Below, piece after piece: positions 6,702 to 52,690 of a DNA stretch of 64,000 bases (position 1 is its first letter; each line of letters begins with the position of its first letter). The notes below the pieces were generated by a model, which worked only from the letters and a program-made list of their open reading frames with translations, did not search any database and had not been told where the DNA came from. The position numbers and the translations under genes were made by a program. This DNA is from Armatimonadota bacterium (GTDB lineage Bacteria > Armatimonadota > UBA5829 > DSUL01): the NCBI GenBank assembly GCA_039811685.1, contig JBDHZC010000002.1:608001-672000 (forward strand), given 5' to 3'.

Positions 6702-6720
6702 TAGAAGGCGAACGAGTCTG

Positions 6721-30294: not shown

Positions 30295-30480
30295 GCGCCC
30301 AAATTCACCCAAAAACGGGCAATCTGAGCACGAAATGACCTTCTCCAGCTGTCTTCAGGCGCCCTCCATAATTTTCAACTTTTTGCAGCCGCTCGCTTAG
30401 CTCACGCACGAATCACCCCAAAAATGTCTGCGAACCTCGTGCTCAAGGCTCCGGAGCTTGGGGTTCGCACAGCCGCCTGC
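30295..30480 (-). promoter_or_regulatory. CRISPR leader
   Basis: Non-coding region between cas2 and the first repeat, with inverted repeat tgcgaacc...ggttcgca and AT-rich patches. Confidence 0.8.
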
Positions 30481-30777
30481 TTAGGTGATCAGCGGTTCGG
30501 TGAAGTCCACATACTTATCGACGCCAAAGGTTTCCACGCACCGCTTTCTTCCGCCCGGCAGACTGTAGATTCGCAGGCTATCCTTATCGGCGTCAATAAT
30601 CTGCAGCAGCCGGTGTCTCAACTCCTCCAGCTCCACATCCGTCAGAGACAACTCAAACACGGAGTACTGAACCCGCGTGCCGTAGTTAACACACTGCTTT
30701 GAAGCCTTGCGAAGCCTTTTGCGCCCCGCGGCGTCCTCGGTATTTACGTCGTAGCTGATCAGGTAGTCTGCACGCAC
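30481..30777 (-). CDS. cas2: CRISPR-associated endonuclease Cas2
   Basis: LISYDV, RLRK, YGTRVQYSVFE, DSLRIY. Confidence 0.95.
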   Translation of the reverse strand: MRADYLISYDVNTEDAAGRKRLRKASKQCVNYGTRVQYSVFELSLTDVELEELRHRLLQIIDADKDSLRIYSLPGGRKRCVETFGVDKYVDFTEPLIT

Positions 30778-30788
30778 GCATGGATCTC

Positions 30789-31823: not shown

Positions 31824-31838
31824 CGGCTGCCTCGCATG

Positions 31839-32498
31839 TCACTCCAGCCCGAGGCCGTCGACCGGCACGAACCGGGCTTCTTCCCGATCTACCGAAAGCT
31901 CAGCCAGAAGCGACGGCTGGCACGCCTCGATAAGCGAGCATCTGGGGCAACGGCTGTCATTGACTGGCGCTGGCACCCTCTCGCGAAGCAGCATCTCCCT
32001 CACCCCTTCGATGGCGTCCTCCGTCGCCCGGCGAAGTTCGCGCGTGAAGTTCACTTCGCGGCGGCGACGCGCCTTTTGATAGAATAGCGCGCCACGCGTT
32101 ACACAGCATCCTAACATCTCTTCCAGACACAACGCCTGAGCGCAAACCTGCACCTCGTCATGCAACTTCTGGCCCGGAGGCCCATGTTTGTACTCCACGG
32201 GAAACACGGCGCCATCAGGCCACGGCGGCCCATCGGAACGGAATTCAACAGCGTCCGCTTTTCCAAAGATACCAAGACGCTCGCAGACCAGTGGCAGGGC
32301 AAACTCCACACGGACCGAAGCCTCCGCGCAGCCCGTATCTGAGTGTACTCGCTCGTGTTCCCGCCGCCCACGCAGCGTGTAGATGTTCTCGTCAAAGGTA
32401 TGCTCCAGGTGGATCAGCCCACACTGACGAGGACAGTACACCCAGTGCTCCAGCGCCGAAATCATCACCCAGGCGTCGTCGGGAGCGGTGTCAGTCAC
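31839..32498 (-). CDS. cas4: CRISPR-associated exonuclease Cas4
   Basis: ISALEHWVYCPRQ, GKADAVE, PVEYKHG, QVCAQALCLEEM, CPRCSLIEAC. Confidence 0.95.
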   Translation of the reverse strand: MTDTAPDDAWVMISALEHWVYCPRQCGLIHLEHTFDENIYTLRGRREHERVHSDTGCAEASVRVEFALPLVCERLGIFGKADAVEFRSDGPPWPDGAVFPVEYKHGPPGQKLHDEVQVCAQALCLEEMLGCCVTRGALFYQKARRRREVNFTRELRRATEDAIEGVREMLLRERVPAPVNDSRCPRCSLIEACQPSLLAELSVDREEARFVPVDGLGLE

Positions 32499-33627
32499 GC
32501 CAGTCGTTGTAGAGCTCGGTGACTGTCACCCCGATGGCCGTACCGTCGCGAGTCAGACGGCCATCCGGGGCGGTCCAGATTCCATTTTTCTCCCAGGCAA
32601 GCTCGACGGCGTAGTCCCTGTAGTGTCGGGCAGGTGGCGTGTTCTCGTCTTCCTTCATCGTACGAAGACGACCGTCCGATGGACGTATCACGCACAGCTC
32701 AAAGAGCTTGTGGACGGGGTAGTTGCCGAGCTTGTGATCATGAGAGAAAACCCAGGCCGCCAGTGCCTTCATGCTACCGGCAGGACGAGCGTCGGAAACG
32801 GAGAACTGAAACATCTGCCGTAGCCCATTCCACAGGACGGCCAAATCGTCTTTGGTTACCTGTCCGAACCGGTCCAGTGTGGGGAAGTACTGCCCGGTAC
32901 CTCGATAAAGCCCATAGGGCATTCCCGCCGTACTTCCGGGCATTGAAGACACTGCTTTGTCCTGCTCGATAGACTCCTTGGGATTGTCCGTACGCGCTGT
33001 TCTAACAATCGACATCAGCCCTGGAACGATCTCTTCGACCGTTTCGGCCATGCCGATACTGACACATCCCACGCACTGCCCCCCATTAAGGATGTCCTCT
33101 TTCTTGACCTGACCCGTCTGCTTGAGCTTTTTCGGAGACGGCGTTTCACCTTCGACTCCAGCGTCACTCGAGCTTTCTAAATCCGCAGACGCCGGGTCAT
33201 CCTTACCTACGGTCAAGACACCGCCAAACATCCGGATATCCCAGAAGAAGTCCCGCATGTTCTTCTGGTTCTCCTCGGTGGTGCCTCTGCCGTGCTTCTT
33301 TCGTACCGACTGGTGCTCATTCTTCAGCAGGCCTCTATGTTTGACGTAGAGATTCATTCGTCCCTTATCATCGTTGACATCTGACGTGCCGTATAGATCG
33401 GCCATGAAATCACGCAGCTTGCGCTTAAGCGAACCCGATGAGACAAGGCCCTGGCCAGTCTCGAAATCCTGCCTTGGCATATTGTCTGAGTCAGGATCGC
33501 CGTTGGGATTACACCGGGTAGCGTCAAAGATGAAGAAAAAGTCATGTCTCTTTGTGGGATCAAGCACCAGATGACCTTCACATAGACTGAGTGCGTAGCC
33601 TAACCTGTCGCTAAGATGTACGTTCAT
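32491..33627 (-). CDS. cas7: Cas7 (Csd2-like), type I-C, divergent and lengthened
   Basis: NPNGDPDSDNMPRQD, LKRKLRD, FWDIRMFGGV, PYGLYR, SDARPAGSM, WVFSHDHKLGN; start at MNVHL after a purine-rich RBS. Confidence 0.88.
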   Translation of the reverse strand: MNVHLSDRLGYALSLCEGHLVLDPTKRHDFFFIFDATRCNPNGDPDSDNMPRQDFETGQGLVSSGSLKRKLRDFMADLYGTSDVNDDKGRMNLYVKHRGLLKNEHQSVRKKHGRGTTEENQKNMRDFFWDIRMFGGVLTVGKDDPASADLESSSDAGVEGETPSPKKLKQTGQVKKEDILNGGQCVGCVSIGMAETVEEIVPGLMSIVRTARTDNPKESIEQDKAVSSMPGSTAGMPYGLYRGTGQYFPTLDRFGQVTKDDLAVLWNGLRQMFQFSVSDARPAGSMKALAAWVFSHDHKLGNYPVHKLFELCVIRPSDGRLRTMKEDENTPPARHYRDYAVELAWEKNGIWTAPDGRLTRDGTAIGVTVTELYNDWRD

Positions 33628-33964
33628 TTTTTCCCTCTTCAGAACGATGGTGATAGAAGCCTTTCCAGAACCAGCCTTGCTCCTCGATGTTATGGGCTTT
33701 CGCAAAGACAGTCGTCCCAAGCAGACGACTGATCTGCGTATGGATGTAGCTTGCTCCAGTTGGATTGTCGCGCCGTAGTTTTGGCATATAGATCTGATTC
33801 AACCTTGTAATCAGCTCTCCAAGAACTTGATTCGGCCTAGTCGCAGCGAGTCGTGCATTGGAAGCCAAGAGCGTCTTGCCTGATTCGCCGACCGCTAATC
33901 GTTGTGCGTAGCAGATAAGACTAAACACGCGCCCCGCGTTGTAAGCATTGCGCTGTCGTTCCAT
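33611..33964 (-). CDS. cas11: Putative Cas11c small subunit translated from an internal in-frame start in cas8c (117 aa)
   Basis: GAGGTG-9 nt-ATG in frame just before the Cas11-like C-terminal domain (MERQRNAYNAGRVF...). Confidence 0.55.
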   Translation of the reverse strand: MERQRNAYNAGRVFSLICYAQRLAVGESGKTLLASNARLAATRPNQVLGELITRLNQIYMPKLRRDNPTGASYIHTQISRLLGTTVFAKAHNIEEQGWFWKGFYHHRSEEGKNERTS

Positions 33965-35527
33965 CAGTCTGTTCACCTCAACTTTCTCCAGATTGTTCAA
34001 CGAGCACAAACAAATGTTGAGAAGGACCAGCCTGTCCAGTGGGAAGCAGGCGGTATTCGTTACCATGCCTTTGCTTTGCTTCGGCCTTGCTCGGGGCGTG
34101 AACGTGGGCTCCCACCCCGCTTCCAACTCAGTCGCCAATCGTCCCACCACGGCGCTCAGTACCGTCAAAGGTACACGGCCAACGCCTAGGCTGACCGCCA
34201 GCAGGCGTCGCCACAGGACTCTCTCGCCACTTGTCATTGTGTTGAGACGTCCGTCCGCCAAATGCACCTTCTCAAACCACCGAGAACGGGGACGCAAGGC
34301 CATGATCAACTCAGTCAGATTGTAGACCTCTGTCTGCTGATCACCAAGTACAGCCTGCCACTTCCACCACCTTAGAATTGCCGTGCCGGCGGCCTCCGCC
34401 TCCTTTTTCAGCCAGCAAGTGACAAAGGCCGTGGCTTTGTGGGCTCCGAGCCCCAGAACGCTTACACCTTCGGGTGCGATACCCGCTTTCTGCCCAGTTC
34501 TCACGCTATTCAGCAGAGCTCTCCAAACCTGCGGATCAACAGCCTGCTCACCCCACGGCTTGAGTACCGTGTCCCCCCAAAATCCGAGCACCTCGTCGTC
34601 AAGAAGCAGCCGCGAGCTGTCAGACTCCAACAGGCTGTTCCACTCTTTCGCTGCCCGGTCAGCACATTGTGTACAGATAGGGGCGTTGTAAGCCTGCCGT
34701 CGGCCCCGCGAGGCGTACGCAGCGCAATTGAAGGACGTAAAACGATGCTTTCTAGGCACAATCTTGACACCGTCCTTTAAGCGTTCGAGCCCGTCAAAAC
34801 CGGGAATCAGGCGCTCGACCACGTCCTTCTGCCCACAAACCAGACACTGCGCTCTCACTAGCGGCGGAAGCGACAAATCTGCAGCGTCTGGAACGATCGC
34901 GACCGACCCATCTGACCGTGCGGTTTTTGCCTTCCGCGTTCCGCGGGCGGCAGCTTCGCTCAGTGCTCGTCCTTGCGAACACCAGAAGCTCACTACCTCA
35001 GAGTCCTGCCACCATGCCTGCTCGTCCACATAGATCGCAGCATACAAATTAGACGTCAAGGGAGGCTTCGAGGCTTGAGATTTGATCTGACTGTCTATCT
35101 CGCGCGTCATTCCGGCAGTGTCATTAGTGTTGAGAAAACTGCACCAAGCGCTAACTTGCTGCGAATTCGGTAGCGCAAGAGCAACTTTTGCTGCGAAATC
35201 CCGGAGATTACGCGCCTTGGATGCGCAGTTTCTATCCGTCGCTAAAGAGACGCTCCACGCGTGCTTCATGCCTTGGACGACGAATTTTCTGCCCAAGAGA
35301 TGTTCCAGCTTATGCACTCCCATGCTGGGCTTCCCAGAATTAGTCGGGTCGAGAAAAGGAAACCAACGTCGTGGGAGCTGCGAGTCTTTAGCCAGCTTGT
35401 GGATGACGATGCCCCGGAGCACCCCGGAGCCATCAATGTGGATGTCAGCGGCGACTTCCTGTTTCCAGCACCCGACAGGCGGAAGTGTTTTGCGCTCCGC
35501 CAAACGACACAGCTCTTGCAGGATCAT
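33611..35527 (-). CDS. cas8c: Cas8c (Csd1-like) large subunit, divergent
   Basis: MILQEL start overlapping the cas5 stop (ATGA); CLVCG, SFN..AY.S.G..QAYNAPICTQC; C-terminal YNAGRVFS and EEQGWFWKGFYH. Confidence 0.82.
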   Translation of the reverse strand: MILQELCRLAERKTLPPVGCWKQEVAADIHIDGSGVLRGIVIHKLAKDSQLPRRWFPFLDPTNSGKPSMGVHKLEHLLGRKFVVQGMKHAWSVSLATDRNCASKARNLRDFAAKVALALPNSQQVSAWCSFLNTNDTAGMTREIDSQIKSQASKPPLTSNLYAAIYVDEQAWWQDSEVVSFWCSQGRALSEAAARGTRKAKTARSDGSVAIVPDAADLSLPPLVRAQCLVCGQKDVVERLIPGFDGLERLKDGVKIVPRKHRFTSFNCAAYASRGRRQAYNAPICTQCADRAAKEWNSLLESDSSRLLLDDEVLGFWGDTVLKPWGEQAVDPQVWRALLNSVRTGQKAGIAPEGVSVLGLGAHKATAFVTCWLKKEAEAAGTAILRWWKWQAVLGDQQTEVYNLTELIMALRPRSRWFEKVHLADGRLNTMTSGERVLWRRLLAVSLGVGRVPLTVLSAVVGRLATELEAGWEPTFTPRARPKQSKGMVTNTACFPLDRLVLLNICLCSLNNLEKVEVNRLMERQRNAYNAGRVFSLICYAQRLAVGESGKTLLASNARLAATRPNQVLGELITRLNQIYMPKLRRDNPTGASYIHTQISRLLGTTVFAKAHNIEEQGWFWKGFYHHRSEEGKNERTS

Positions 35528-36180
35528 CTGAAGGTCTCCTCCATTACCGGGCGGAGCCAACCGTTCCCTTGCACCAGCTTACAGAAACGGTATTGGACCT
35601 CGGTCGCCCCTTCCGGTAGCACTGCGCTGTGGACGATATACCCCAAGTTGGAAAAATCGAGCGTGCTGACCGGATCGGTATCTAGCACGCCAAAGAAGGC
35701 GCCCAGCTCCCGAAGGCCCAAGTACGGCTGGTGATAGCATTGGCCCTGTCTCACTCTGTGGTTAAACTGGCGCGCGATGGAAGCAGGGTTCGTTGAACTC
35801 GCAAAGATGCGGGCACGAGCGCGAATGGCATAGCAGGGCCAACGAAGGATTTGGCATGTGCGTTGTACGCGGTGTTGTTTAATGTTGTAACCGTCTCTCG
35901 GGTGCGTCTCGCCCTGTGACGCAAGCTCATTCAACGTCATCGACATGTAGTTTTCCCAATCTATGTGTCCGCCGCGGTCAGGGTGGGGCAGCAGCCCGAG
36001 CCCCGTTACTTCCCATCGGAACTCTGGCTTCCAATAGATCGATTCTAGAATCCCTACAGCTGCACTAGGCGTGATGATTGGGTAGCTCACGCGTTCGACC
36101 TTATTCTCCGGCCGGGTGAAGCACGCATAGCGCCCCCAAACCTTTACCTCAATGAGATGGTTTTGTGAGTGGTCAAACAC
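35524..36180 (-). CDS. cas5: Cas5c (Cas5d), type I-C
   Basis: VWGRYACFTRPENKVERVSYPIITPSAAVGILESIYWKP, GQCYHQPYLGLRE; GTG start after AGGAGG. Confidence 0.92.
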   Translation of the reverse strand: MFDHSQNHLIEVKVWGRYACFTRPENKVERVSYPIITPSAAVGILESIYWKPEFRWEVTGLGLLPHPDRGGHIDWENYMSMTLNELASQGETHPRDGYNIKQHRVQRTCQILRWPCYAIRARARIFASSTNPASIARQFNHRVRQGQCYHQPYLGLRELGAFFGVLDTDPVSTLDFSNLGYIVHSAVLPEGATEVQYRFCKLVQGNGWLRPVMEETFR

Positions 36181-38377
36181 AGCAATCCTCCTGAGCCATC
36201 TCGACAGTTTCACCCAACCCGAGATAAGGATGGTAAGAGCCTGTCCAAAGATGTAACCCTCCAATCCAGTTCTCCACAAGGTAAGACTCCGAGAGCCGTA
36301 GGACATCAACGTGCCTCATGCACACGGAGATCCGCTGCAGTTGCTGCCACTCCGCATCCTCAGCGAAGCCCTTAGATCGGATGCGCTCGAGGTCGTTTTT
36401 GGTTAGCCCGGCGTGGCTGATCTCGCTCCACACAAGTACCGGGAACGTCTCGTCTGCGATCATCCTGTATTCTCTCGCTACAGCTGGATAATCGAAGTGC
36501 TCGCGGCGCTCCTGGATTCTCCTACCCGTGTCCGCTACGCTCTGGTAAAAGAGCCGAAAGAAGCTTTCGTAGAGCTCCGGGTCATGAAGATCCGCGTCCC
36601 TGTCCTGCAGTTTGACCTGCGCTGCCTGCATCGCCTGCCGGTACACACCAGGTGGTGCGCTTGCGTCCGTGATCCGAAATATGTGGACATCTCCAAATGG
36701 CGGCGTATTCGGCTGACCATTACGATTGCAGCGCCCGGCTGCCTGAACAATTCGATCCAACGGACCGAATTCACGGTAAACTACGGGAAAGTCAAGGTCC
36801 ACGCCCGCCTCAACAACTTGCGTAGATATCACAATGACCCTGCGTTGAAGCGGAGGTTTGATCCTTTCCAATGTCTTCTTCCGGTGCTGAGGGTGAAGGA
36901 GAGTCGATAAATGCAGTACTTCGACGTCGTCTATCGTCTGCTGCCGGACTTTCTTCCAGAGCACCACCGCCAGTCGCTTGGTATTCGTGATCACTAATAC
37001 CGATTCCTTGTGGTGTCGAACTATCCGGCGTGCGATTTCCTCCGCCTCAGCCTCCTGCGGCTCGAAGTGGTAACAAACGCGTTTGGCCTGGCGAAACAGC
37101 TCTTTCACATTGCCCAGTATTGGTCGTGCTTGCGGGAGCGAGACAGCAAAATTCATGTTCTGCTCGAGCGCGGGTTGGGTAGCAGTGCAGAGAAGAATAG
37201 TACACCCGTAACATTCATGAACGAGTGCACGCAGCATATCCAGGGTGGGTTCCAGCAAATGCGGCGGCAGAGTCTGTACTTCGTCAAGAATTATGACGCT
37301 TCGAAGGATGTTACGAAGTTTTCGACATCGACTGCGCTTATTCGAGAACAGACTTTCGAACAGCTGAACGGTAGTTGTCACAATGATTGGAGCTTCCCAG
37401 CGGTCAGCCACATCGCGCTGACGGCGCGCGATCAACGTCTGCTCCTCCGTATCCGGCGGCTCCAGACCGCTGTGGTGCTCAATTACGGCGTCGACAGGAA
37501 GAAACTCTCGATACACTTTGGCCGTCTGGTCTATGATTGAGGTATATGGCGCCGCATATATCACTCGTCGCAGACACGTGTGAGCGCCTATATGCGCAAG
37601 TGCAAACGCCAAGGTTGCCAACGTCTTTCCCGAGCCTGTCGGGGCCGTGAGAGTGAAAAGTCCGGGATGGTCTTTCGCCTTCTCCAAGCACTCAGAATAC
37701 ACCTTTGCTCTCAACCGATCAATGGATGAGGCCGCTCTGGTGAATCTCTTCCCGTAGGTATCAAAGAAATACTTGCGACACTCAGCCACGCTGGGATAGC
37801 TTTTCCGCAGCCAGGTATGCTCGTGCTGAGCGCTATCGTAACTGTCGGCTTCGACCAGGCAAGAATAGAGGAATCGCAAGAATGGCTCTACCAACCATTT
37901 CTCACGACTCAGGAACTTGGGAAACGTAAGTGGTCGGCGGTGGGCCTCCAAGAATTTGCGGGATTTACAATCGGCAGAGTATTTGTTTCTTAGCTCTGCT
38001 AGTTGAGTTTCGTTAAGCTGGTAGATGCCACTGTGATGACCAGCGATAACGGGCCACAGGAACTCCAAGTCTTCTGTGCATAGCAGCGCGCCGTAAGGGG
38101 AATGCACTACCTCTCCACGGCGAACAGAGTTAGGCGTGTCCACGCAGCGCTTCAAATACTCCTGGAACTCTGGCCGAAACTTTCCGACGTCGTGTAGCAG
38201 CCCGGCCATGTAGCCGTAATCCCTGCCACCAAACCCTGCGGCCAACGCACCTGTAAGTCGAGCCACGCGCAGAAGATGAGGTTCAAGCTCCTGCCATTTC
38301 CCATCAGCATTGGGGGTATGTGCGTAGCACTTCTCTGTGCCTGTGTCGTCCACTACCAGCTTCTCCTGCTTGCTCAT
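36173..38377 (-). CDS. cas3: Cas3 HD nuclease-helicase
   Basis: YAHT..HL, LLHDVGK, IAGHH, APTGSGKT, LDEVQ, TATQP, STQVVEAGVDLDF, QAAGRCNR. Confidence 0.95.
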   Translation of the reverse strand: MSKQEKLVVDDTGTEKCYAHTPNADGKWQELEPHLLRVARLTGALAAGFGGRDYGYMAGLLHDVGKFRPEFQEYLKRCVDTPNSVRRGEVVHSPYGALLCTEDLEFLWPVIAGHHSGIYQLNETQLAELRNKYSADCKSRKFLEAHRRPLTFPKFLSREKWLVEPFLRFLYSCLVEADSYDSAQHEHTWLRKSYPSVAECRKYFFDTYGKRFTRAASSIDRLRAKVYSECLEKAKDHPGLFTLTAPTGSGKTLATLAFALAHIGAHTCLRRVIYAAPYTSIIDQTAKVYREFLPVDAVIEHHSGLEPPDTEEQTLIARRQRDVADRWEAPIIVTTTVQLFESLFSNKRSRCRKLRNILRSVIILDEVQTLPPHLLEPTLDMLRALVHECYGCTILLCTATQPALEQNMNFAVSLPQARPILGNVKELFRQAKRVCYHFEPQEAEAEEIARRIVRHHKESVLVITNTKRLAVVLWKKVRQQTIDDVEVLHLSTLLHPQHRKKTLERIKPPLQRRVIVISTQVVEAGVDLDFPVVYREFGPLDRIVQAAGRCNRNGQPNTPPFGDVHIFRITDASAPPGVYRQAMQAAQVKLQDRDADLHDPELYESFFRLFYQSVADTGRRIQERREHFDYPAVAREYRMIADETFPVLVWSEISHAGLTKNDLERIRSKGFAEDAEWQQLQRISVCMRHVDVLRLSESYLVENWIGGLHLWTGSYHPYLGLGETVEMAQEDCCV

Positions 38378-38461
38378 TTCTCTGCGGCGCCGTCCCTCCC
38401 CTGCCCGGTAGCCGTGTTTATCGCCTGAGCCGGACAGGGCGCCGGTGACTTCCTGACGCAC

Positions 38462-38682: not shown

Positions 38683-40866
38683 TCAGCCTACTGGTGTTCC
38701 GGAACCGGCTAGCTCAACCAGCTCTTTCGGTCCCCAGAGCTTGACGCCGTTGGCTCGCGCAAATGCCGTGGCCTCTGAAGAGAAACCTCCAGGCGCTGCG
38801 ACGACCGGCGTCGTGCCGGGGACCCGGTCTGGGACCACGCCACGCAACTCGCGCACCACACTAACTCCGACAGGTGAAGTCGTATTCTTACACTGGATAA
38901 TCAGCTTTGCTTCAATTTGGAGGTCATCAAGACGAACAGCTGTCAGATCAATTCCGCCGTCGTTTGACCGCGGTGTGCTTTGAACGGTAAAACCCATAGC
39001 GGTTAGGCGCTCGGCAAGCCACTGTTCAAATTGTTCGCCAGTCATCGCTGTGAAGTTCGCGGCATCTCGCTGGATATCGGTTACGGCTGAGCGAGGAGGA
39101 GCTAGTCCGAAGAGCCCGAACAGGTCTTCTTCGTTCAGCATTACGCTCAAATCAACGCTAACGTCGTCAACGATGTCGCGAAACAGTTGGCGTTTTTGCT
39201 GCAGCCTCTGCTGAATGCGCTCTTCGATTGTGTCGGTGCATATATAGCGATAGACGGTTACCGGGCAAGCTTGGCCTATCCGATGACTGCGACTGTCCGC
39301 CTGATCCTCGATCGCCGGGTTCCACCAACGGTCAAGATGGAACACATAAGAAGCGGTCTGGAGGTTCAGGCCGACTCCTCCTGCCCGAAGCGAAAGAACA
39401 AGCACCTTATGAGCTGTGTCCAGCGTGAAGGCTTCCACTGCAGCAGCTTTCTGAGACTGACTCATCGCTCCTGTGTAGGCCAGTGGGGAGTACTTAGCCA
39501 GTCGCTTCCGAACCAGCTCGACTCCAAAGGCGTCATCTGTGAACTGAGTGAAAAGGAGGGCACGATGTCCTTCTTCAACAAGAGTCTGAAGCCGTTCCTG
39601 GATGTCAAGCAGCTTGCTGGACTCGCCGGTCGTGGGGTCACAGTTGCAGATCTGCTTCAAACGGGAGATCAGCTCCAGAATATGCGTTACGGTTATCTCG
39701 GATCCCTGCTCCTTGAGACGTATTAGACCTTGGCGCTCCGCGCGCTCATAGGCCTCCCGCTGCCGTGGAAGAAGATCAATCGACAACTCACTGGTGAGCT
39801 TTGGCGGCAGATCCTTGAGGACATCCGCTTTCTTGCGCCGAAGCTGGTGAGACGGTAGCATCGCTATGGCCTGTTGCGGATAGATGACAGGGCGGGTTTC
39901 TCCGCTCTCCCAGACTAGAAACTCGAGGATAGAGGCGACATCGTCAACGCGGTTTTCGAGAGGCGTTCCTGTTAGCGCCCAACGACGGTCTCTTTGGAGT
40001 CGTTTGCATGCAACGGCTATGCCCGTATCACGGTTCTTTATACGGGATGCTTCATCAAGGACAACCACATCCCACGCCTGTCTGAATGGCACGCTCTCGG
40101 TAACCTGCATTTCGGAACGCAGTGTTTCGTAGCTTACGATCTTGACATGAGAAGGCAATCGCCACAGAGCTGCTCTGTCAGAAACTGGGCCGCCGAGGGT
40201 CACTGATCTAAGCTCAGGAGACCAAAGAGCAAGCTCTTTTCGCCACTGCGTGAGCAGGCTTGCCGGACAGACAATCAACGCGTTTGCGATTTCACGCCGT
40301 ACGAACAATACACGCAAGGCTGCAATTGTCTGAATTGTCTTGCCAAGCCCCATATCATCGGCCAACAGCAATGACTGTGAGTTGAGCAGAGCCTTTACCC
40401 CGTCCCTCTGGAACGGCAGAAGCTCTGACGGCCACTCCAAGACGCTATCTGAACCCAGAATTGACTCCAGCGGTGGTTGCAGCACGGCAGCCAAACGCTT
40501 CATCATATCCTGGTCAGATGTAGAATCAACAGCTACCGGCGGCTCTGACGGCTTCACTGGAGTCACTCCAGATTGCGGCGTGTGGGTGCGGCCGGAGACA
40601 AGATCGAACCATCCGATCTGATGGGAGCGAGCTGTCGGCCGCTCGAAATCAGGGATAGCTAGCCCGGCGACGCGGGGCTTGGAAACTGACGGAAGTGTCA
40701 GTGTCTTGACGGAAGACAGGACGAGCGCGCCTGTCGCCGAGACAATGCGGGGCTGGACCTTGGGTTCCCAATCCCGCGGAAGACCCAGGAACCGGAACCG
40801 TGGAGCTACAGAACGAGGTTGTCTACGAATCCGCCAACCTGACGGTCGAGTCTGGCCATCCGGCAT
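38683..40866 (-). CDS. SNF2-family ATPase fused to a C-terminal Mrr-like restriction endonuclease domain
   Basis: LLADDMGLGKT, LDEASRIKN, LTGTPLEN, GGVGLNL, WWNPAIEDQA..R.HRIGQ; C-terminal FEQ.LA..GF..DGGIDL..IQCKN. Confidence 0.88.
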   Translation of the reverse strand: MPDGQTRPSGWRIRRQPRSVAPRFRFLGLPRDWEPKVQPRIVSATGALVLSSVKTLTLPSVSKPRVAGLAIPDFERPTARSHQIGWFDLVSGRTHTPQSGVTPVKPSEPPVAVDSTSDQDMMKRLAAVLQPPLESILGSDSVLEWPSELLPFQRDGVKALLNSQSLLLADDMGLGKTIQTIAALRVLFVRREIANALIVCPASLLTQWRKELALWSPELRSVTLGGPVSDRAALWRLPSHVKIVSYETLRSEMQVTESVPFRQAWDVVVLDEASRIKNRDTGIAVACKRLQRDRRWALTGTPLENRVDDVASILEFLVWESGETRPVIYPQQAIAMLPSHQLRRKKADVLKDLPPKLTSELSIDLLPRQREAYERAERQGLIRLKEQGSEITVTHILELISRLKQICNCDPTTGESSKLLDIQERLQTLVEEGHRALLFTQFTDDAFGVELVRKRLAKYSPLAYTGAMSQSQKAAAVEAFTLDTAHKVLVLSLRAGGVGLNLQTASYVFHLDRWWNPAIEDQADSRSHRIGQACPVTVYRYICTDTIEERIQQRLQQKRQLFRDIVDDVSVDLSVMLNEEDLFGLFGLAPPRSAVTDIQRDAANFTAMTGEQFEQWLAERLTAMGFTVQSTPRSNDGGIDLTAVRLDDLQIEAKLIIQCKNTTSPVGVSVVRELRGVVPDRVPGTTPVVAAPGGFSSEATAFARANGVKLWGPKELVELAGSGTPVG

Positions 40867-41365
40867 CTGGATATAACTCCTCTAGACCTCTTTGAATTCT
40901 CTCGAACGGTTCTGTTAGAAAACCTCGATTCACCAGTTCTTCAGCCAGATGATGGGCTTTCATTTGGTGCGACGGGCGCTCGTTGATCCAGATCAACTCT
41001 GCTGGCTCAGCCGATGCTGAAGGTCTGGCCATTGCAAATGGGATACTTGGCGCCAGTTCTTCCCTGCAAAAACTCATATCTCCGAGATCGGGTTCACAGA
41101 GCAGAATGTCCGGCACACGTGTACAGGCCTCAAAAAGCGCATGGCATATTTCGCTGGCGCTAATATTGCGCACAGTTGCTTCAGGCCACAGAAAGCCAGC
41201 CGGCGCCGACAAACTGGCATGCACGAACTCTAGCGGCTGTCCTCTGTTGTCGACAACTAGGAGGCCTCCAAGAACTTCACGGTTATCTTTGAGAAAGATG
41301 AGCCGAACGTACGCCGCAGCACTGCCAGCAACTGAGCGTGGAGATGGCCGGTAGGGTATTCCCAC
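40823..41365 (-). CDS. Hypothetical protein (180 aa) in the candidate defence operon
   Basis: ORF starting 3 bp after the upstream stop and overlapping the SNF2 start; preceded by GAGGT. Confidence 0.65.
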   Translation of the reverse strand: MGIPYRPSPRSVAGSAAAYVRLIFLKDNREVLGGLLVVDNRGQPLEFVHASLSAPAGFLWPEATVRNISASEICHALFEACTRVPDILLCEPDLGDMSFCREELAPSIPFAMARPSASAEPAELIWINERPSHQMKAHHLAEELVNRGFLTEPFERIQRGLEELYPDAGWPDSTVRLADS

Positions 41366-41368
41366 CTC

Positions 41369-42586
41369 TCAACCGCCTGCCTCTTCACCGCTGGGAAGAT
41401 CTTCATCCGATATTTCGGTGGTGTCAAACTCAATGTTGCCCACATCTACATCCGGGTCGTGCTGGGGATAATAGCGATGCATATCCCAGAGTGTTACCCA
41501 TCTACGAATGTCCGATCTCATAGTCGTGCTTGCCGCTAGCGTTTTCAGATCAGGCAGACTGAGGCCGTAAGCCTCTTCGTAGATTGCCTTTATCCGGTAT
41601 TTCACCTGTTCCTTCTCTTCCGTCGTAGGCTCCGACAGATGAATGGGCTGTTTTAGAAACTCGATTCCACGCTGTCCTCGATTATCAGGTTCAGCATCCA
41701 GAATTCCAAGCGTACCGGAGAAATACCGCAGCTCGTCAGAAGCGCCCCCGGTTATTGTCTCTTCCACAAAGCCTCGCGTAAGCGTGAAAACTGGAATAAT
41801 TCTGGAGCCACTCTGCGCCGCAATATCAATCCACCATCCAACTTCGTCATACGCCGCAAACCGTTGTTTCCTCGAAAACTGTGCCAATCTTTCGAGCTCA
41901 TCAAACAGCACAACGATTCCATTGCACCCACACGCGTGAAGAAGTTGAGCCATCACACGGATACGATCGTGAGCGAGAAGGAAATTCCTTGGGCCCCGAA
42001 GATCGTATCCAGCGAGTTGTCCCATCTCCCTCAGCTTCTGGCGCAATACGGTGAGGATCAGCGGCTTTCCTTCGAAATCACCCAGAATTTGCATCCGGAG
42101 CTCGTCGTCGTGTGTCTCCTCGAAAACGTGCAGAAGCGCACGAAACCGGTCGTAAATGTTTGCATCGCGAGCCCAAAGCCTGAGGTCAGCAAAAGCTGAT
42201 CCGCTAGTTCTCAAGTCGGGGGACATTGCGCGAAGGGCCTTGCCGGTCCTCCCTGGCGCCCGTGCGTTCTCTGCGAGAGCTTTCAACACAACGTGAGGAT
42301 TTCCCAACGGGATTTCGGGGCTCACGGTCAGATAGCTTGTTGCGAAATTCTTCTTCTCCGCAAGTATCTGGAGATAGTTGAGGAGATGCGACTTGCCCGC
42401 GCCAAAATTGGCGTCAATCACCATTGGTTCAGCGCACTGGCCGTCTGCCACCAGATCAAGAGAGCGTTCAAAGAGTTCTGCGACATCGCTTCTAGTGATC
42501 CCAAGTCGCTCTACGGCGTGTTTGCTCGGCACTCCAGACCGAAGCGCTTCAATGGCGCTGCGAGCTATCATGACTCTGTGCTCCAT
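41369..42586 (-). CDS. P-loop ATPase, BrxD/DUF2791-like
   Basis: AIEALRSGVP N-terminus, Walker A ANFGAGKSH, Walker B VVLFDELE. Confidence 0.75.
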   Translation of the reverse strand: MEHRVMIARSAIEALRSGVPSKHAVERLGITRSDVAELFERSLDLVADGQCAEPMVIDANFGAGKSHLLNYLQILAEKKNFATSYLTVSPEIPLGNPHVVLKALAENARAPGRTGKALRAMSPDLRTSGSAFADLRLWARDANIYDRFRALLHVFEETHDDELRMQILGDFEGKPLILTVLRQKLREMGQLAGYDLRGPRNFLLAHDRIRVMAQLLHACGCNGIVVLFDELERLAQFSRKQRFAAYDEVGWWIDIAAQSGSRIIPVFTLTRGFVEETITGGASDELRYFSGTLGILDAEPDNRGQRGIEFLKQPIHLSEPTTEEKEQVKYRIKAIYEEAYGLSLPDLKTLAASTTMRSDIRRWVTLWDMHRYYPQHDPDVDVGNIEFDTTEISDEDLPSGEEAGG

Positions 42587-43690
42587 TTACTCAACCTCCA
42601 GGTGGACTAGCGCCGCTGCCGGATTCGGACGATCGCGATCTCGCACTTCCAGCCCTATTCGCGTCTGCAAAGCGTCGTAGTCCGTATAGCGGCGCGGAGA
42701 AAGCGGTTCGTAGAAAGCTGGAGAAGTCAGGACCACCAGCAACAAACCTTCAAACTGATCAATCTCGTCAATAAAGCGGCGCATCATCGAGAGCATCTGC
42801 ATGTAGGCGGCCTTTGAATAGAACAGGCGATTTTCGACAGGGGTGTGCTCTGCCATCAGACCTTCTAAGTCTTGATGCGATGCGCCGGCAGCAATGGCGC
42901 GCTTCACCTGATCAAGTATAATGCGGTCGCGCTGAGCCTTGGAAATCTTCACACTCTCATAGGGTCGAAAGTCGAGGCAGATGACGCTTCCGTTGTACCT
43001 CATCTTTCTAACCCAACGCAGAAAAGACATTAGCATGTAGCGCGCATTCGTTTGGTTAATACGTTCGTAAATCTGAAGGCGCTTTAGCGCGTTTGCTTGC
43101 CCCGTCGCCGTTTGTCCAGAAAGCCAGTGCAATAATATATCTGTGGTCGATGGCGTATAGGAATCAGGAACCAGTTGCGCACGTTGCAGCGCCAGCAGGG
43201 CAGTCCGAAATTCAATGGCCATCTCGTGATCTCGAATCTGCGGTGTTGCGAGCTCTCTCTGATATTCATTCACGAGGTCATTCGCATCCCTGCCGTTGTC
43301 GGAGGCAATGCCTTCTAAATCATCGAGAGCGCGTCCGCGAATTTCGATTCCTTTGGAAGCAAGGAATCCCTGAACCTGCTGGATTGCCAAGTCCACCCAA
43401 GGAACAGACGCAGTTATTGCGAAAAATAACTTGTCAATTCGATGCAGGTCAGGTCTCTTACCATTTGCATCGAACTCATCGGTCCTGGGCGCAACATAAT
43501 ACAAGCCCGTTTCTTCTGCCACGGCGCTAAGTTGCGCTTGTATCTTTGCAAGACACTCGTCATTTCCGCTGACGACTTTGACCGCAGATCCGCCCGCAGG
43601 CAGGTATTCGTGCAGATATTCCGCCGTGATAACATGCATCCATGCGTCTGCGCTCATCTCCTGGCGCTCAGAAGATCGAAATATTCCCAT
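42587..43690 (-). CDS. DUF2791/BrxD-like protein with degenerate NTP-binding motifs
   Basis: EYL..YLPAGGSAVKVVSG, IN..NAR.ML.SF.RW, MRRFIDEID, YDALQTRI; no GxGKS/T visible. Confidence 0.55.
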   Translation of the reverse strand: MGIFRSSERQEMSADAWMHVITAEYLHEYLPAGGSAVKVVSGNDECLAKIQAQLSAVAEETGLYYVAPRTDEFDANGKRPDLHRIDKLFFAITASVPWVDLAIQQVQGFLASKGIEIRGRALDDLEGIASDNGRDANDLVNEYQRELATPQIRDHEMAIEFRTALLALQRAQLVPDSYTPSTTDILLHWLSGQTATGQANALKRLQIYERINQTNARYMLMSFLRWVRKMRYNGSVICLDFRPYESVKISKAQRDRIILDQVKRAIAAGASHQDLEGLMAEHTPVENRLFYSKAAYMQMLSMMRRFIDEIDQFEGLLLVVLTSPAFYEPLSPRRYTDYDALQTRIGLEVRDRDRPNPAAALVHLEVE

Positions 43691-43699
43691 GGTCTTGTT

Positions 43700-44530
43700 C
43701 TACCTGAAAGTGATTCCGTAGTATCTAAGCGGTCTACCGTCTTCAGACACGACCTCAAAGATGTCAGATTCCTTCGCGCTACTGGAGGGGTACTCGAAGT
43801 CGTAACGCTTCCCAGCTTTGGTGGCGCTGATACCGGAGCGGTGTAGGGCATAAATTTCCTGTCCAAAAGCGGACTTGGGGTTATCCTTCTTGTAGCCCGG
43901 AGACAGACAAAACAGATCGTAAAGGCCCCGAAATTTGGCAAAAAACGCGCCTGAATCTTTACTAAGATATTCAACGCCCCCGTATAAAAACTCTAAGAAC
44001 TGTTGTTGGCCACCCGTATTGGCTTTGTCTCGTAGCCTTTTCAATTCTGCGGCCACGACCTTCGGACGAATAGAGCGAAATAACTTCTTGCCAATCTGAA
44101 GAATGCCGCGCGACGGCAACGCCTGCAATAGAACCGGGGACGAGATGGCCATGTTTCCCTCTAGCAGGATACGCAGACCGAACTTCTCGCCACTGGCCAA
44201 AGTCCTCAACTCGTGCTGCCACGCGCTGGAGCTGAGATACGCGTAGACGTCAAACTGCCAGGCGGCTGCCGTTTCTGATGTTCCGCCTGGCAGCGCTTGC
44301 GCGGCTTCCATTGCTTGATCGGCTGCCTTCTGCCGTGCCGCAATATCTCCCTTGGCTACAGCCTTTTTCCACGACTTCAAGGCTGACAAATACTTGCTAC
44401 CTGCCCGGATTAAAGCGTCCACTTGGGCTTCATGAGTAGCTAGAGCTTCCTCCAGAGAAGCGTCATTGTCTGGACGTCCTGGTGCTGTATTGTCGCTTGT
44501 CATGTCCAGACTAAGGTCTTGTGACTCCAT
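43700..44530 (-). CDS. Hypothetical protein (276 aa), first gene of the candidate defence operon
   Basis: Long ORF with strong RBS GAGGAGGT; 9 bp from the next gene. Confidence 0.7.
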   Translation of the reverse strand: MESQDLSLDMTSDNTAPGRPDNDASLEEALATHEAQVDALIRAGSKYLSALKSWKKAVAKGDIAARQKAADQAMEAAQALPGGTSETAAAWQFDVYAYLSSSAWQHELRTLASGEKFGLRILLEGNMAISSPVLLQALPSRGILQIGKKLFRSIRPKVVAAELKRLRDKANTGGQQQFLEFLYGGVEYLSKDSGAFFAKFRGLYDLFCLSPGYKKDNPKSAFGQEIYALHRSGISATKAGKRYDFEYPSSSAKESDIFEVVSEDGRPLRYYGITFR

Positions 44531-44608: not shown

Positions 44609-44688
44609 GGTCAGAGGGCGGGAATGAGGAAGTCGTTTGTGGCGTCGGCGGAGGATACGGTTAGGCGCAGGCGGCTGTGAGGCTCGGA
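44609..44688. repeat. Right copy of the 80-bp imperfect direct repeat
   Basis: 75/80 identical to 28889-28968; on the minus strand encodes ..EPHSRLRLTVSSADATNDFLIPAL-stop. Confidence 0.92.
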
Positions 44689-44889
44689 GTTTGCGTGGAG
44701 CCGAGTTTGGGGCAATGGCTTCCGACCGGCTTCAAAGAGGGTGACGGCAACAGTGCGCGCCCCGCGCACGCCTTCCGTCAACAAGCCCCGCAAGCCTGCT
44801 ACTGTGACCATCTTGAGCGAAGCTTGATTCACAAACTCGAGTACGTCCAGTTGTTCAGATGACTTACGAGGTCCCTGTTCATCCACCAT
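44611..44889 (-). other. Short ORF or gene remnant whose 3' end forms the direct repeat
   Basis: 92-aa ORF; its last ~25 codons recur with conservative changes at 28891-28968. No family recognised. Confidence 0.3.
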
Positions 44890-46404: not shown

Positions 46405-48384
46405 TCAAGGAGCCGCTAGCGTTTTTTCCTCTGCGGGCGGTGCGTTGGGGTCCTCAGATTTGTTTTTCTTCTGCAGGTCATCACCCATCTTCCGCATCCT
46501 CTCCCGCATTCTCTTCATCTGCGCGGCGTCTGGCAGCATGACAGCCACCTGGAAGGTGCGGGGCTTGTCGTCGGTGGTAGTGAGCACTGAGCACTCAAAG
46601 CGAACGATTGCGGGTTGCTGGGCGGGCTCGTCCGGCCAGGTTTTGTCCTTGACGATCCTTACGAAGCCGTCGGCGATCTCAACCCCTCCCAACCGCTCGA
46701 TCATAAGGTCGGCAAGGCGCTGATACTGGCCGTCATTCAGGTCGGCGAATGTCAGGCCGCGCTCACCGGACAGGGCTTTTTTCTGCTGAGGTGTCAACGC
46801 CCCGTAGAGGCGCAGGAGATCACCAGGTCCGCCCATTTCAGAACTGAGATTTCCGGCCATAAACACAAAGTCCGGGTCAGCCATGAGCGTACGGTGTATC
46901 TGGCCGTCGGACAGCTCTGCCGCCATGTCAGCAAGCTCATCCAGCGTCAGCGAGCCATTCGTCTGGATCTTGTTGCGGTAGTACTCCAGCCAGCTTTCCC
47001 GAATCTCACAGGATCGCCTCACGCTCCAGTCTTCGGGGCGCAGCGTCAGTGTGTCGCCCTTCAGATCCCACTCATATCCAGCTTTCTCAAACGCAATTAC
47101 CATCTTCGCGAGCGCCTGCTTGCCCGGCGAAATGAAGGCGCCCGGAAGCATCATCCTCAGGTAAGACTCAAGAATCACCGGACCACCCGTGGCTTTAGCC
47201 AAAAGATCGAGCGTCTTTTTTTCGTCCGAGTGGTCGACATCCAGGCTCATTTCCTGAATTCCCGGCATCTTTTTGACCTCCACCTCTTTGAGCAGCGGCC
47301 CGGCCACCGGGGGAGCGTCTTCAGTCGGCGACTTGTGCGCAAGCAGGGACTGTACAGCGCCGGAATCTCTGAAATCCTCCATCAGCTTCTTTTGAGCGTC
47401 CTGCGGGGCCACACCGTCCTCCAGCATCCACATAAGGCGGCCAAAGAGATGGCCCATCACTGTTCCTTCGCCGGTAATGGGGAGAATACCCATCGGCATT
47501 CCATCCGTCAGATCGCCAGCGCCTCCTGCGGGCCAATCGCTGGAACGTCCCATAATCATGATCATTCCGCCAAATCCCCAGCTGTGTTGCACGCCATCGG
47601 CGCTCTCCTGCAGCGGCATCACGGTGAGGCTAGAGGGTCGCATAGACTTCCATGGGTCGTGTTGCGGATTTTCGATCAGACCACGGAACATGCTTGTCTC
47701 AGTGGCCTGGCGAGCAGCTTCGCGCATCTGGACAGGCGCCTGATTCAGGTCTATGGTGGCGCGGCGGCCACGCAGAAGCAGGTCCTTCACGTCTGGATAG
47801 CTGGCAGTTATACCTTTCAGGAGCTGTGCGTACGCACGCCCGGTGGGCGTTGCGCCCAGGTACGAGAGCCACGGGTCCTTATCCCGCAGCTTGCGGGCGT
47901 CAGCCTCGGACATCGTCAGCGCCCGGTCAGAAAGCTCGAAAGCCGCCTGGCGCTGCTCACGGGTACGCTCGGCGTCCGCCGCCTTCTGAGCGGTGAGCAT
48001 TTCGGCTTCCAGATCTCGCTGGTTTTTGTCCTGCCACCAGAGGTAGGTGAACTGGCCGTCGCGCTTTCCGCGCGCAAGGCGGTAGTGGACGAGGTTGGAG
48101 ATGTTATCCAGAAGATCGCCCAGGCGCACATCCTTCGCACGTACGCTGATATGGCGCTCGCGCACCCGCCAGTCACGCTCACTGCTGCCCGCCCGGATGG
48201 AGACCCCGGACTGCTTGCTGAGCAGCTCCGCAACGTCGGAGAGCTTCGCATACGTGACGTCAAGAGACACTTTCTGGTCCAGTCGCGGATCAACGGCCTT
48301 TTCATCCGTCTGCTGGGCCAGCGCCGCTGTGGACAGCAGCAAAGCTGCAACAACTGTCAGAGCAGGTACTCGCAGATATATCAC
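46405..48384 (-). CDS. Hypothetical secreted protein with a secretin/TonB N-terminal-like first domain
   Basis: Signal peptide; DPRLDQKVSL..LSDVAELLSKQSGVSI; GTG start after GAGG. Confidence 0.65.
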   Translation of the reverse strand: MIYLRVPALTVVAALLLSTAALAQQTDEKAVDPRLDQKVSLDVTYAKLSDVAELLSKQSGVSIRAGSSERDWRVRERHISVRAKDVRLGDLLDNISNLVHYRLARGKRDGQFTYLWWQDKNQRDLEAEMLTAQKAADAERTREQRQAAFELSDRALTMSEADARKLRDKDPWLSYLGATPTGRAYAQLLKGITASYPDVKDLLLRGRRATIDLNQAPVQMREAARQATETSMFRGLIENPQHDPWKSMRPSSLTVMPLQESADGVQHSWGFGGMIMIMGRSSDWPAGGAGDLTDGMPMGILPITGEGTVMGHLFGRLMWMLEDGVAPQDAQKKLMEDFRDSGAVQSLLAHKSPTEDAPPVAGPLLKEVEVKKMPGIQEMSLDVDHSDEKKTLDLLAKATGGPVILESYLRMMLPGAFISPGKQALAKMVIAFEKAGYEWDLKGDTLTLRPEDWSVRRSCEIRESWLEYYRNKIQTNGSLTLDELADMAAELSDGQIHRTLMADPDFVFMAGNLSSEMGGPGDLLRLYGALTPQQKKALSGERGLTFADLNDGQYQRLADLMIERLGGVEIADGFVRIVKDKTWPDEPAQQPAIVRFECSVLTTTDDKPRTFQVAVMLPDAAQMKRMRERMRKMGDDLQKKNKSEDPNAPPAEEKTLAAP

Positions 48385-48585
48385 TCGATCCTCTTTTCCC
48401 GGCGCGCATGCGCAGTATAGCACCTGCTGAGTGCGCGGAAAAGAGATTTGGAGAGGAATGGTTCAAATTGAGCGCTGCTGAGACGCGTTATGTGGAGAAA
48501 AGAGGAGTCAGGCCAGAGGGCCGAGCGCGCGTGGGGCACGGCCAGGCTGAGATGCCTTCACTCTTGGAACGAATCCCTCGCGGGT

Positions 48586-48904: not shown

Positions 48905-50056
48905 TCAATACACCACGCCTTTCTCGTCCAGCCATTTTCGCAGCCGTTCATCCGTATCTCCGTCCTCGAAACCATAGAAAACGTCGAGAAGGGCCATCTC
49001 TCCCTCCTCTTGCTTGAGCAGCCACTCCAAAACCGGGATGTCGTCTTTGTCTGCCGAGTTTGCGCCCCAGGCAACTTCCCGAAGCACCTCCGGATTGTTC
49101 GTACGGGCCACGACCCACTCCAGAACCGGGATGCCTCTCTTGCCAACCCGGCTTGCGCCATACGCAGCCTCCCGATAAACCTCCGGATCGTTCCTCTTTG
49201 CCACGATCCACTCCAGAACCGGAATGCCAGCCTTGCCTGACTTGCCCGCACCCTTCGCAGCAGCTGGTAGCACATTCAAGTTGTTTGTCTTGGCGACAAT
49301 CTGTTTAAGAACTGGGATGCCGGCCTTACCTGCCCTACCGGCGCTCGACGCCACCATCCTAAGCGCCTCCAGGTTGTTTGTTTTTGCGACAATCTGTTTA
49401 AAAACCGAGATCGAGAGACTAGCGACGGGTTGGTCGAGTGTACTCCACGCAGCGGTACGCAGGATCTGCGGATCGTTCGTTTGGGCGACGACCCACGCCA
49501 AAACCGCAATACCAGAAACGCCTGCTTTACTTGCGCCCAGCGCAGCCTGGTCAAGCACCTCTGGGTCGTTCGTCTTCGCGAATATCTCTTTCAGAAGCGG
49601 GACGCCAGCGTCGCCTGCCTTGCCAGCCTCGTAGGCCACCATTCGAAGCACTTCTCCGTCATTCGTCTTTTCTACGATCCACGCTAGAACCGGCAAACCC
49701 CTCTTGCCAGCCCTGCCTGCGCCCCACACAGCATTTTGAAGCACCTCTAAGTCATTGGTATTTGCCATGACCCATGCCAAAACCGGGATGCCATCAGGGC
49801 CTGAGGAGCCTGCGTGCAGCGCAGCGTCCCGAAGCGCCTCCGGATCGTCTGTCTTTTTCACAACCTGCGCTAGAACTTGGATGCCAGCCGTGCCCATAGT
49901 AGCTGCGCGCTTCACAACGTCTTGAAGCACGCCATAATCATCGTAATCGTCCGTGTTTTCCACGATCTTCGCCATAAGTGCGGTGATGACCTCACACGCC
50001 TCACCGGCAGCTTCCGTTGCCGCACTAGGCGTGTCCGAAGCGACTCCCTTTTTCAT
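48905..50056 (-). CDS. Alpha-helical tandem-repeat protein, about ten 31-aa HEAT/PBS-like units
   Basis: Unit consensus KTN(D/N)PEVLRxAAxGAGxAGKxGIPVLxWxVA; GGAG upstream of MKKG. Confidence 0.75.
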   Translation of the reverse strand: MKKGVASDTPSAATEAAGEACEVITALMAKIVENTDDYDDYGVLQDVVKRAATMGTAGIQVLAQVVKKTDDPEALRDAALHAGSSGPDGIPVLAWVMANTNDLEVLQNAVWGAGRAGKRGLPVLAWIVEKTNDGEVLRMVAYEAGKAGDAGVPLLKEIFAKTNDPEVLDQAALGASKAGVSGIAVLAWVVAQTNDPQILRTAAWSTLDQPVASLSISVFKQIVAKTNNLEALRMVASSAGRAGKAGIPVLKQIVAKTNNLNVLPAAAKGAGKSGKAGIPVLEWIVAKRNDPEVYREAAYGASRVGKRGIPVLEWVVARTNNPEVLREVAWGANSADKDDIPVLEWLLKQEEGEMALLDVFYGFEDGDTDERLRKWLDEKGVVY

Positions 50057-50096
50057 AATTCTCTCCGGAACCAGGACAGCTTTCTTGCGATACAAT

Positions 50097-52385: not shown

Positions 52386-52690
52386 TGATCTCAATCTCCG
52401 TCAGTTTTCGTCTCAACAGGAAAGCCTCTCGCGGAACAAGTTGATGGGAGCGTCTTTGAAGGACTGCGCCGCCGCAGTTTTCCTGAAAAAGCGCCCACCT
52501 TTTATTGCCATGGATGGCGCCGGAAAGAGCACGACAGCAGCCCTTGTCAGGGTCACCAACGCTGTGCCTGCTCCGGTCGTCTCGGATATTGCGAACCCCT
52601 GTCCGCCACAAAACGATGGAAAGCATCCACAGTTTGACCTGCGGGTGTGGAACCATTTTAACAGCGGCGAACAGGGAAAGGAGACATGGA

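Follow-up and report, generated by a model that had tools for sequence, protein, structure and literature searches.

A conserved five-gene operon combining paired BrxD-like proteins, an endonuclease V-like fold and an SNF2 motor: a likely anti-phage or anti-plasmid system

Do five closely packed genes that lie next to a type I-C CRISPR-Cas locus in an Armatimonadota bacterium form a system of their own, and is that system one of defence? We examined this for a stretch of 64,000 nucleotides (nt; below, the window) comprising positions 608,001 to 672,000 of the forward strand of contig JBDHZC010000002.1 (assembly GCA_039811685.1), in which genes A to E occupy 38683-44530. An earlier note, made from the sequence alone, had put them forward as an undescribed defence system of two hypothetical proteins, two BrxD/DUF2791-like proteins and an SNF2-Mrr nuclease, possibly working with the adjacent Cascade. 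We find, with high confidence, that A-E are one conserved, mobile five-gene operon, independent of CRISPR-Cas. The operon represents an unnamed and fairly widespread family, which we infer to be an anti-phage or anti-plasmid system with a probability of roughly 0.6. The five genes, taken from the list of open reading frames (ORFs) and their translations, are as follows (lengths in amino acids, aa).

43700-44530, minus strand: gene A, 276 aa
42587-43690, minus strand: gene B, 367 aa
41369-42586, minus strand: gene C, 405 aa
40823-41365, minus strand: gene D, 180 aa, GTG start
38683-40866, minus strand: gene E, 727 aa

All five genes are read from the minus strand, upstream of cas3. Computed from the first start codon of each ORF, their spacings are 9, 0 and 3 nt, followed by a 44-nt overlap, confirming the tight coupling described in the earlier note. 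The start of C may lie at Met6, five codons later, because a public record that is 100% identical to C (P0277) is 400 aa long; this would make the B-C spacing 15 nt.

Are these genes inherited together? A search of 40 relatives with C gave a match in six genomes, none of them in the bacterium's own family, and one of the six was weak (E 3.6e-4). At the five strong matches B and C were adjacent and in the same order (5/5), D and E followed in four, and A was detected in three. A scan with a B alignment, using one genome per species, returned 66 loci, which include the five strong-match loci, counted once. The last 11 of them (L068-L078), ten short or partial matches plus L072, were kept outside the counts, and 37 of the remaining 55 qualified because B was flanked by 900 nt or more upstream and 4500 nt or more downstream. 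A-B-C-D-E occurred in this order in 28 of the 37 loci; B-C-D-E with A undetected by tblastn was found in four, A-B-C only in three, and A-B-C together with E in two. Median spacings in related loci were 14, -4, 12.5 and -4 nt. The genes that had been grouped as a system thus form a unit. None of the 66 loci yielded a relative of cas3, of the 92-aa ORF beyond gene A or of the methyltransferase next to that ORF, and the idea that the five genes work with the neighbouring Cascade fails on this count.

Several relatives depart from the common arrangement. In two Arenicellales metagenome-assembled genomes (MAGs; L061 11651-12468 and L064 11695-13803) small ORFs stand in place of D, among them a DDE transposase fragment in L061, and the SNF2 gene has shrunk to 466 and 431 aa; both copies look as if they are decaying. 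A-B-C without D-E was seen at L052 11373-13185 (same place as L012), L036 and L067, followed at one locus by two co-directional family-less proteins (223 and 361 aa) and at two by housekeeping genes. The distant variant L072 has a 394-aa protein without known family and two BrxD-like genes that both match PF10923. At L008 3410-4745 (same place as L047) a Phd/YefM-PIN and a Phd/YefM-ParE pair are inserted between C and D, and at L017 a gene for a 1908-aa DEAD/Helicase_C protein (2126-7852) immediately precedes a complete five-gene operon and is read from the same strand.

Genes B and C encode related proteins that differ in one essential respect. C matches PF10923 (BrxC_BrxD) in Pfam at 7.7e-21 and, in PADLOC, BrxD at 2.9e-14 and SngB (PDLC03959) at 2.6e-10. 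Its Walker A motif reads GAGKS, and across 47 sequences of the C family the invariant residues are G62, G64, K65 and H67 (Walker A), D229 and E230 (Walker B), R242 and R357. These motifs mark C as a P-loop ATPase with intact sites, of the BrxD kind (ORC/Cdc6-type AAA+ class). Source names of C homologues are mostly 'hypothetical protein', 'DUF2791 family P-loop domain-containing protein' and 'BREX system ATP-binding domain-containing protein'. B likewise matches PF10923, at 2.9e-9 over residues 145-251, and BrxD in PADLOC at 1.2e-9; profile-profile comparison of B with C by hhalign gave a probability of 91.9% and an E of 6.9e-7 over 230 columns. B carries no GK[ST] where C has FGxGKS. Among 47 B-family sequences the invariant residues are G33, G34, W189, G192, R217, R304, F306, I307, D308, D311, A340 and R344, and D240, at the Walker B position, is nearly invariant. 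Both proteins are therefore BrxD-like, as proposed, with the refinement that B is a diverged, Walker-A-less paralogue of C and presumably a pseudo-ATPase. In the whole genome, PF10923 occurs in this operon only.

Gene D, one of the two proteins first described as hypothetical, can be placed by its predicted structure. By sequence it has no family in Pfam, PADLOC or NCBIfam, 0 of 46 members match a related Pfam family, and its profile reaches a best E of 0.39 against PDB sequences. The model of D has a predicted local distance difference test score (pLDDT) of 89.8. Foldseek against the PDB gave 46 matches at E<=1e-3, headed by the C-terminal half of UvrC (2nrv, 8.8e-6) and endonuclease V (EndoV; 3hd0, 1.4e-5). 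In the VIA wide search EndoV 3hd0 was matched with a Z of 10.1 and a root-mean-square deviation of 4.0 over 143 aligned residues, the archaeal Argonaute AfAgo (6t5t) with a Z of 9.8 and UvrC (8b0q) with a Z of 8.7, the aligned range being 132-149 residues. Judged from the model, D belongs to the RNase H fold in the form shared by endonuclease V, the C-terminal half of UvrC and PIWI domains. Across 46 sequences P44, W60, P85, P109, W126, E152, P153 and R156 are invariant, and position 46 is Glu in 45 and Asp in one. D shares its fold with the EndoV/UvrC-C/PIWI proteins, but a sequence match to them is absent and the strand-1 position where the catalytic Asp would be expected (position 21), which is Asp or Glu in 25 of the 46 sequences, is Arg in the window copy.

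Gene E encodes the motor. In Pfam it matches SNF2-rel_dom (8e-49), Helicase_C (1.8e-16) and Mrr_cat (PF04471; 1.4e-24), and its parts are arranged as follows.

40432-40866, minus strand: N-terminal region, residues 1-145, variable, weakly conserved from residue 17
39145-40428, minus strand: SNF2 ATPase core, about residues 147-574
38710-39048, minus strand: Mrr-type PD-(D/E)xK nuclease domain, residues 607-719

The motifs of E are intact (GLGKT, DEAS and the Mrr D...QCK, as GGIDL...IIQCK), and those named in the earlier note are all in place, GAGKS in C included. The best PADLOC models for E are ZorD (3e-71, residues 342-719) and DpdE (2.6e-63), and DrmD models also match. In the E family motif I reads GLGK followed by Thr in 35 of 38 proteins, Gly in two and Ser in one, and motif II starts with LDE in 38/38. 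The nuclease domain is less constant. Of 38 complete E proteins eight have Mrr (the window's and seven others), six of them with canonical D...QxK; the remaining 30 stop just after the helicase core. The SNF2-Mrr partner that the system was thought to be built around is thus present here but does not define the family. The ORF downstream of an Mrr-less E lies on the opposite strand in 16 of 32 loci and is co-directional in the other 16; where scanned, the co-directional ones had no family, were a DNA ligase, or were the rest of a broken E. Where both D and E are complete (38 systems), an acidic residue occupies position 21 of D in one of the eight Mrr-bearing systems versus 19 of the 30 others. 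No modified-DNA-reading domain was recognised in A-E with Pfam, PADLOC or NCBIfam, the Mrr match being to the catalytic domain only, and the modification-dependent action considered in the earlier note finds no support in these data.

Gene A, the other hypothetical protein, stays without a family: it matches none in Pfam, PADLOC or NCBIfam, a scan of 40 family members one by one returned no consistent Pfam family, and its profile reached a best E of only 0.074 against PDB sequences. The AlphaFold2 model (pLDDT 90.5) predicts a disordered N-terminus, a long helical hairpin (residues 26-90) and an alpha/beta C-terminal part, and Foldseek found nothing in the PDB at E<=1e-3. Matches in the VIA wide search were confined to the hairpin (residues 25-93), so that residues 95-276 were barely probed; in the ESM Atlas these residues found unnamed clusters only and no usable named match. 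The family is nevertheless large. Among 1.84 billion public proteins, its profile recovered 980 representatives (clusters at 50% identity) at E<=1e-3, 710 at 1e-10 and 320 at 1e-30, mostly of 250-280 aa and named 'hypothetical protein' wherever a source name was shown. A complex prediction of A (residues 24-276) with B and C, run with alignments and without controls, scored 0.00 and is uninformative either way.

Could the operon belong to a system that already has a name? No PADLOC 2.0, NCBIfam or Pfam model names the five-gene set, all NCBIfam scores fall far below the curated cut-offs, and A and D have no PADLOC match, which agrees with the earlier view that no named system has this make-up. 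The set was not described in the literature searched, whose scope lay outside preprint supplements and current DefenseFinder models, so that a recent name is possible, nor in those passages of PMC10853773 that deal with Snf2, Cdc6 and 'five-gene'. Bacteriophage exclusion (BREX) systems offer the first comparison. In BREX types 2 and 6, BrxD is paired with the Ski2/Lhr-like BrxHI, beside PglZ, PglX, BrxC and PglW. There BrxD is an AAA+ ATPase of the ORC/Cdc6 type that stands alone, and it has been suggested to place its helicase on target DNA or to activate it there (passages of PMC12839542). As in BrxD-BrxHI of type 2 Pgl and type 6 BREX, a PF10923 ATPase is tightly linked here to a superfamily 2 helicase; unlike in that pair, the ATPase comes as a live/dead pair, the helicase is SNF2 and not Ski2/Lhr-like, and A and D are extra. 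PglZ (PF08665) had 0 matches in the whole genome (97.06% complete), no DNA methylase family that could represent PglX/BrxX was found among the ORFs of 20.7-59.1 kb, and PglW is also lacking in the operon. BrxC models of PADLOC match C only at 0.0086 and 0.059, and against the NCBIfam BrxD model (NF033438), with its cut-off of 350 bits, C scores 54.2 bits and B 36.9 bits.

Shango, which we take to consist of the TerB-domain protein SngA, the DUF2791-type ATPase SngB and the helicase SngC, is also similar in outline: a small partner, a PF10923-type ATPase and a helicase in a free-standing operon without methyltransferase. The present operon differs in having two ATPase paralogues, an SNF2 helicase that is sometimes fused to Mrr, and an additional endonuclease V-like gene. 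TerB (PF05099) had 0 matches in the whole genome, and A has no PADLOC match at E<=0.1. The best stretch of the SngB model on C covers residues 7-91 only, the BrxD model scoring higher, and SngC is not among the best 25 of the 49 PADLOC models that match E. The third likeness is to ZorD of type I Zorya, reportedly a recruited DNA-degrading effector, in which SNF2 and an Mrr-like nuclease are fused in the same order; E differs in its length (727 aa versus about 900-1200 positions in the ZorD models) and in that Mrr is optional in its family. The NCBIfam ZorD model (NF041790) gives E 148 bits versus a cut-off of 1500. No Zor model matches A, B, C or D in PADLOC at E<=0.1, no MotA/MotB-like family that could stand for ZorA or ZorB was found in the operon, and Pfam and PADLOC show no Lhr-type helicase there. 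The earlier statement that a BREX core and TerB are missing holds, for PglZ and TerB across the genome as well, and Zorya partners are likewise absent from the operon. SNF2-REase helicases with a C-terminal PD-(D/E)xK domain also occur in multi-gene, restriction-like operons of DUF499-centred 'BREX-related' systems (passages of PMC12839542), but these are built on DUF499 and a methyltransferase, neither of which is present here. With type IV (modification-dependent) restriction of the Mrr kind E has in common the Mrr catalytic PD-(D/E)xK domain.

The family is spread over several phyla. Named loci came mostly from Armatimonadota MAGs, the others from MAGs of Planctomycetaceae/Pirellulaceae (Planctomycetota), 'Deltaproteobacteria', Vulcanimicrobiota, Chloroflexota/Dehalococcoidia, Arenicellales and Moorellales. 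Within the phylum, the B family was found in 71 of 401 evenly sampled genomes (E<=1e-10; own genome included) and in 57 of 300 high-quality ones. Its presence by family was 0/5 in the bacterium's own family and 12/32, 12/20 (f27), 3/47, 0/13 and 0/15 (f26) in others. Flanking genes, surveyed as 132 ORFs at 23 loci (the three nearest per side where available), vary between loci, and metabolic or housekeeping functions predominate; one relative has its copy directly after mfd. At eight of the 23 loci a PIN, ParE, HEPN, DarT-Macro, Macro-DUF6000, N6_N4 methylase-RAMA, M78-HTH or transposase gene was nearby, and no cas family was present among the 132 ORFs.

Within the window, one island bounded by repeats contains both the operon and the CRISPR-Cas locus. 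The island and its borders contain the following features.

25740-28820, minus strand: PLD-like nuclease, ResIII/helicase and DUF3427 protein, 1026 aa, directly beside the island (Pfam)
28889-28968: left 80-nt direct repeat (repeat family D3), sharp borders, just upstream of the PLD-helicase gene
About 28986-30303: CRISPR array adjoining cas2, 19 repeats, each about 37 nt long, at a spacing of 69-74 nt
30481-38461: cas2, cas1, cas4, cas7, cas8c, cas5 and cas3 of type I-C (Pfam)
32491-33720: ORF named cas7 from its position alone
36173-38461, minus strand: cas3, 221 nt downstream of gene E, same strand
44609-44688: right 80-nt direct repeat, 79 nt upstream of gene A, overlapping the 3' end of the 92-aa ORF
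44611-44889: 92-aa ORF beyond gene A
Beyond the 92-aa ORF: SAM methyltransferase of 272 aa, Methyltransf_31/UbiE-type (Pfam)

The two repeat copies are 94% identical, and the 15.7 kb that they enclose contain the five-gene operon together with the array and cas genes of the type I-C system; the earlier note had already called the island repeat-bounded. Because the repeats border the PLD-helicase gene and the 92-aa ORF, the segment may have been inserted between these two genes. A Pfam scan of the surroundings showed no integrase within the island. G+C content is 0.52-0.54 over 40-44 kb versus 0.58-0.60 outside. Matches to promoter and terminator consensus sequences were not above those in shuffled sequence (4 versus 3.2 expected and 3 versus 6.1 expected). 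The 1026-aa PLD-helicase-DUF3427 protein is likely a separate, single-gene defence candidate. The neighbouring SAM methyltransferase was considered as a missing modification gene and rejected, since it accompanies none of the 66 related loci and is of a small-molecule type.

We favour an immune function because the distribution is patchy and crosses phyla, the neighbourhoods change, copies show insertions and decay, and the island here and the domain types point the same way. The context is defence-like in that the operon has an island in common with type I-C CRISPR-Cas, a PLD-helicase-DUF3427 gene beside it, and toxin-antitoxin insertions in a relative. Likewise, the domains are of defence type, since BrxD and SngB models match C, ZorD, DpdE and DrmD models match E, and the Mrr motif is intact.

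How might such a system act? A-B-C would serve as sensor and loader, a live/dead AAA+ pair with an adaptor that would recognise foreign DNA or a replication intermediate; the same part has been suggested for BrxD and its helicase in type 2 BREX (passages of PMC12839542). A-B-C would then recruit or switch on the effector module D-E, of which E would translocate along DNA using ATP. In the window copy the Mrr domain would do the cutting, and in many Mrr-less relatives D probably would, where an acidic residue is kept at the expected catalytic Asp site. No methyltransferase would be needed, and the system would act independently of the neighbouring CRISPR-Cas. More tentatively, and as a possibility on which we would not wager at even odds, the live/dead BrxD pair and the new-fold adaptor may load SNF2 onto foreign DNA with an interchangeable cutter, either D with its acidic site or, as here with the D site lost, Mrr; the A-B-C core might moreover serve other helicases in sister cassettes and so be a general 'helicase loader' module of immunity. 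If the operon is an immune system, it would add a widespread family (about 980 A clusters at 50% identity; B family in about one fifth of phylum genomes) and a third, more elaborate BrxD-plus-helicase module beside those of Shango and type 2 BREX. Its pairing of a live with a dead ATPase, its facultative fusion to Mrr and its endonuclease V-like partner would then offer handles on how such ATPases recognise invaders and switch on DNA motors.

The main rival to an immune function is a module for DNA repair or genome maintenance, in which an EndoV/UvrC-like lesion binder, an SNF2 translocase (RapA/Mfd-like remodelling) and ORC/Cdc6-like loaders would act on damaged DNA or on stalled replication or transcription. 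The closest structural matches of D are indeed repair nucleases (EndoV, Z 10.1, and the C-terminal half of UvrC), the flanking genes elsewhere are mostly housekeeping, one relative has the operon directly after mfd, and 11 of 38 complete systems lack an obvious nuclease. Core repair, however, would hardly be expected to show the patchy presence seen here (57/300 high-quality genomes, 0/5 in its own family), the spread across phyla with changing neighbourhoods, the toxin-antitoxin genes and transposons inserted within some copies, the Mrr-type nuclease fused in others, or the place it has here beside CRISPR-Cas in an island of low G+C; such traits belong to accessory immunity genes, and we consider a repair role unlikely. 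The genes might alternatively serve a mobile element itself, in replication initiation, partition or the exclusion of competitors on an integrated island. Replication and transposition are common roles of ORC/Cdc6-type ATPases (passages of PMC10853773), the island is bounded by 80-nt direct repeats, and the operon moves between phyla. On the other hand, no integrase, relaxase or replication gene accompanies the five genes, whose flanks differ across the 23 loci; the local island shows no integrase; the B family was not found in the viral contig and plasmid collections; and the exclusion of competitors would in practice be defence. A mobile-element function is, in our estimate, rather improbable.

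If the operon were a diverged or trimmed-down form of something already catalogued, be it Shango, type I Zorya or what is left of a type 2/6 BREX, this would explain why C matches BrxD and SngB models and E matches ZorD models. Such an origin is very improbable given that PglZ and TerB have no match genome-wide and PF10923 is limited to this operon, that the operon holds no DNA methyltransferase, BrxC, ZorA/B/C or Lhr-type helicase, that the equivalog scores are far below their cut-offs with A and D unmatched in PADLOC, and that the five-gene make-up is itself conserved. The position directly upstream of cas3, 221 nt away on the same strand and within the same repeat-bounded island, would suit an accessory module of the type I-C CRISPR-Cas locus, but with a cas3 relative in 0/66 related loci and no cas family in the flanks of the 23 loci this is refuted at the level of gene association, and we give it next to no credence. 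Several observations weigh against the immune reading itself. At fifteen of the 23 loci the three ORFs closest to the operon on each side include no defence or mobile gene, and searches of IMG/VR viral contigs and PLSDB plasmids did not recover the B family. We take position 21 of D to correspond to the catalytic Asp of endonuclease V from the VIA alignment offset and the residue numbering of that enzyme, not from a residue-level superposition. The association between Mrr and position 21 has a nominal Fisher p of 0.016, which is overstated since the sequences are related, and it is to be read as a pattern and not as a test. Furthermore, 11 of 38 complete systems have neither Mrr nor an acidic position 21, so that a nuclease output is not evident family-wide; the co-directional ORFs downstream of Mrr-less E were scanned only in part, and a separate effector gene could have been overlooked there.

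Three further genes of the window, beyond the island, deserve mention. A 672-aa ORF without Pfam family lies at 46405-48423 on the minus strand. At 48905-50095, also on the minus strand, is the gene of a HEAT-repeat protein, within which seven diverged tandem units of 93 nt were found, and a WYL-WCX HTH regulator is encoded at 51426-52394.

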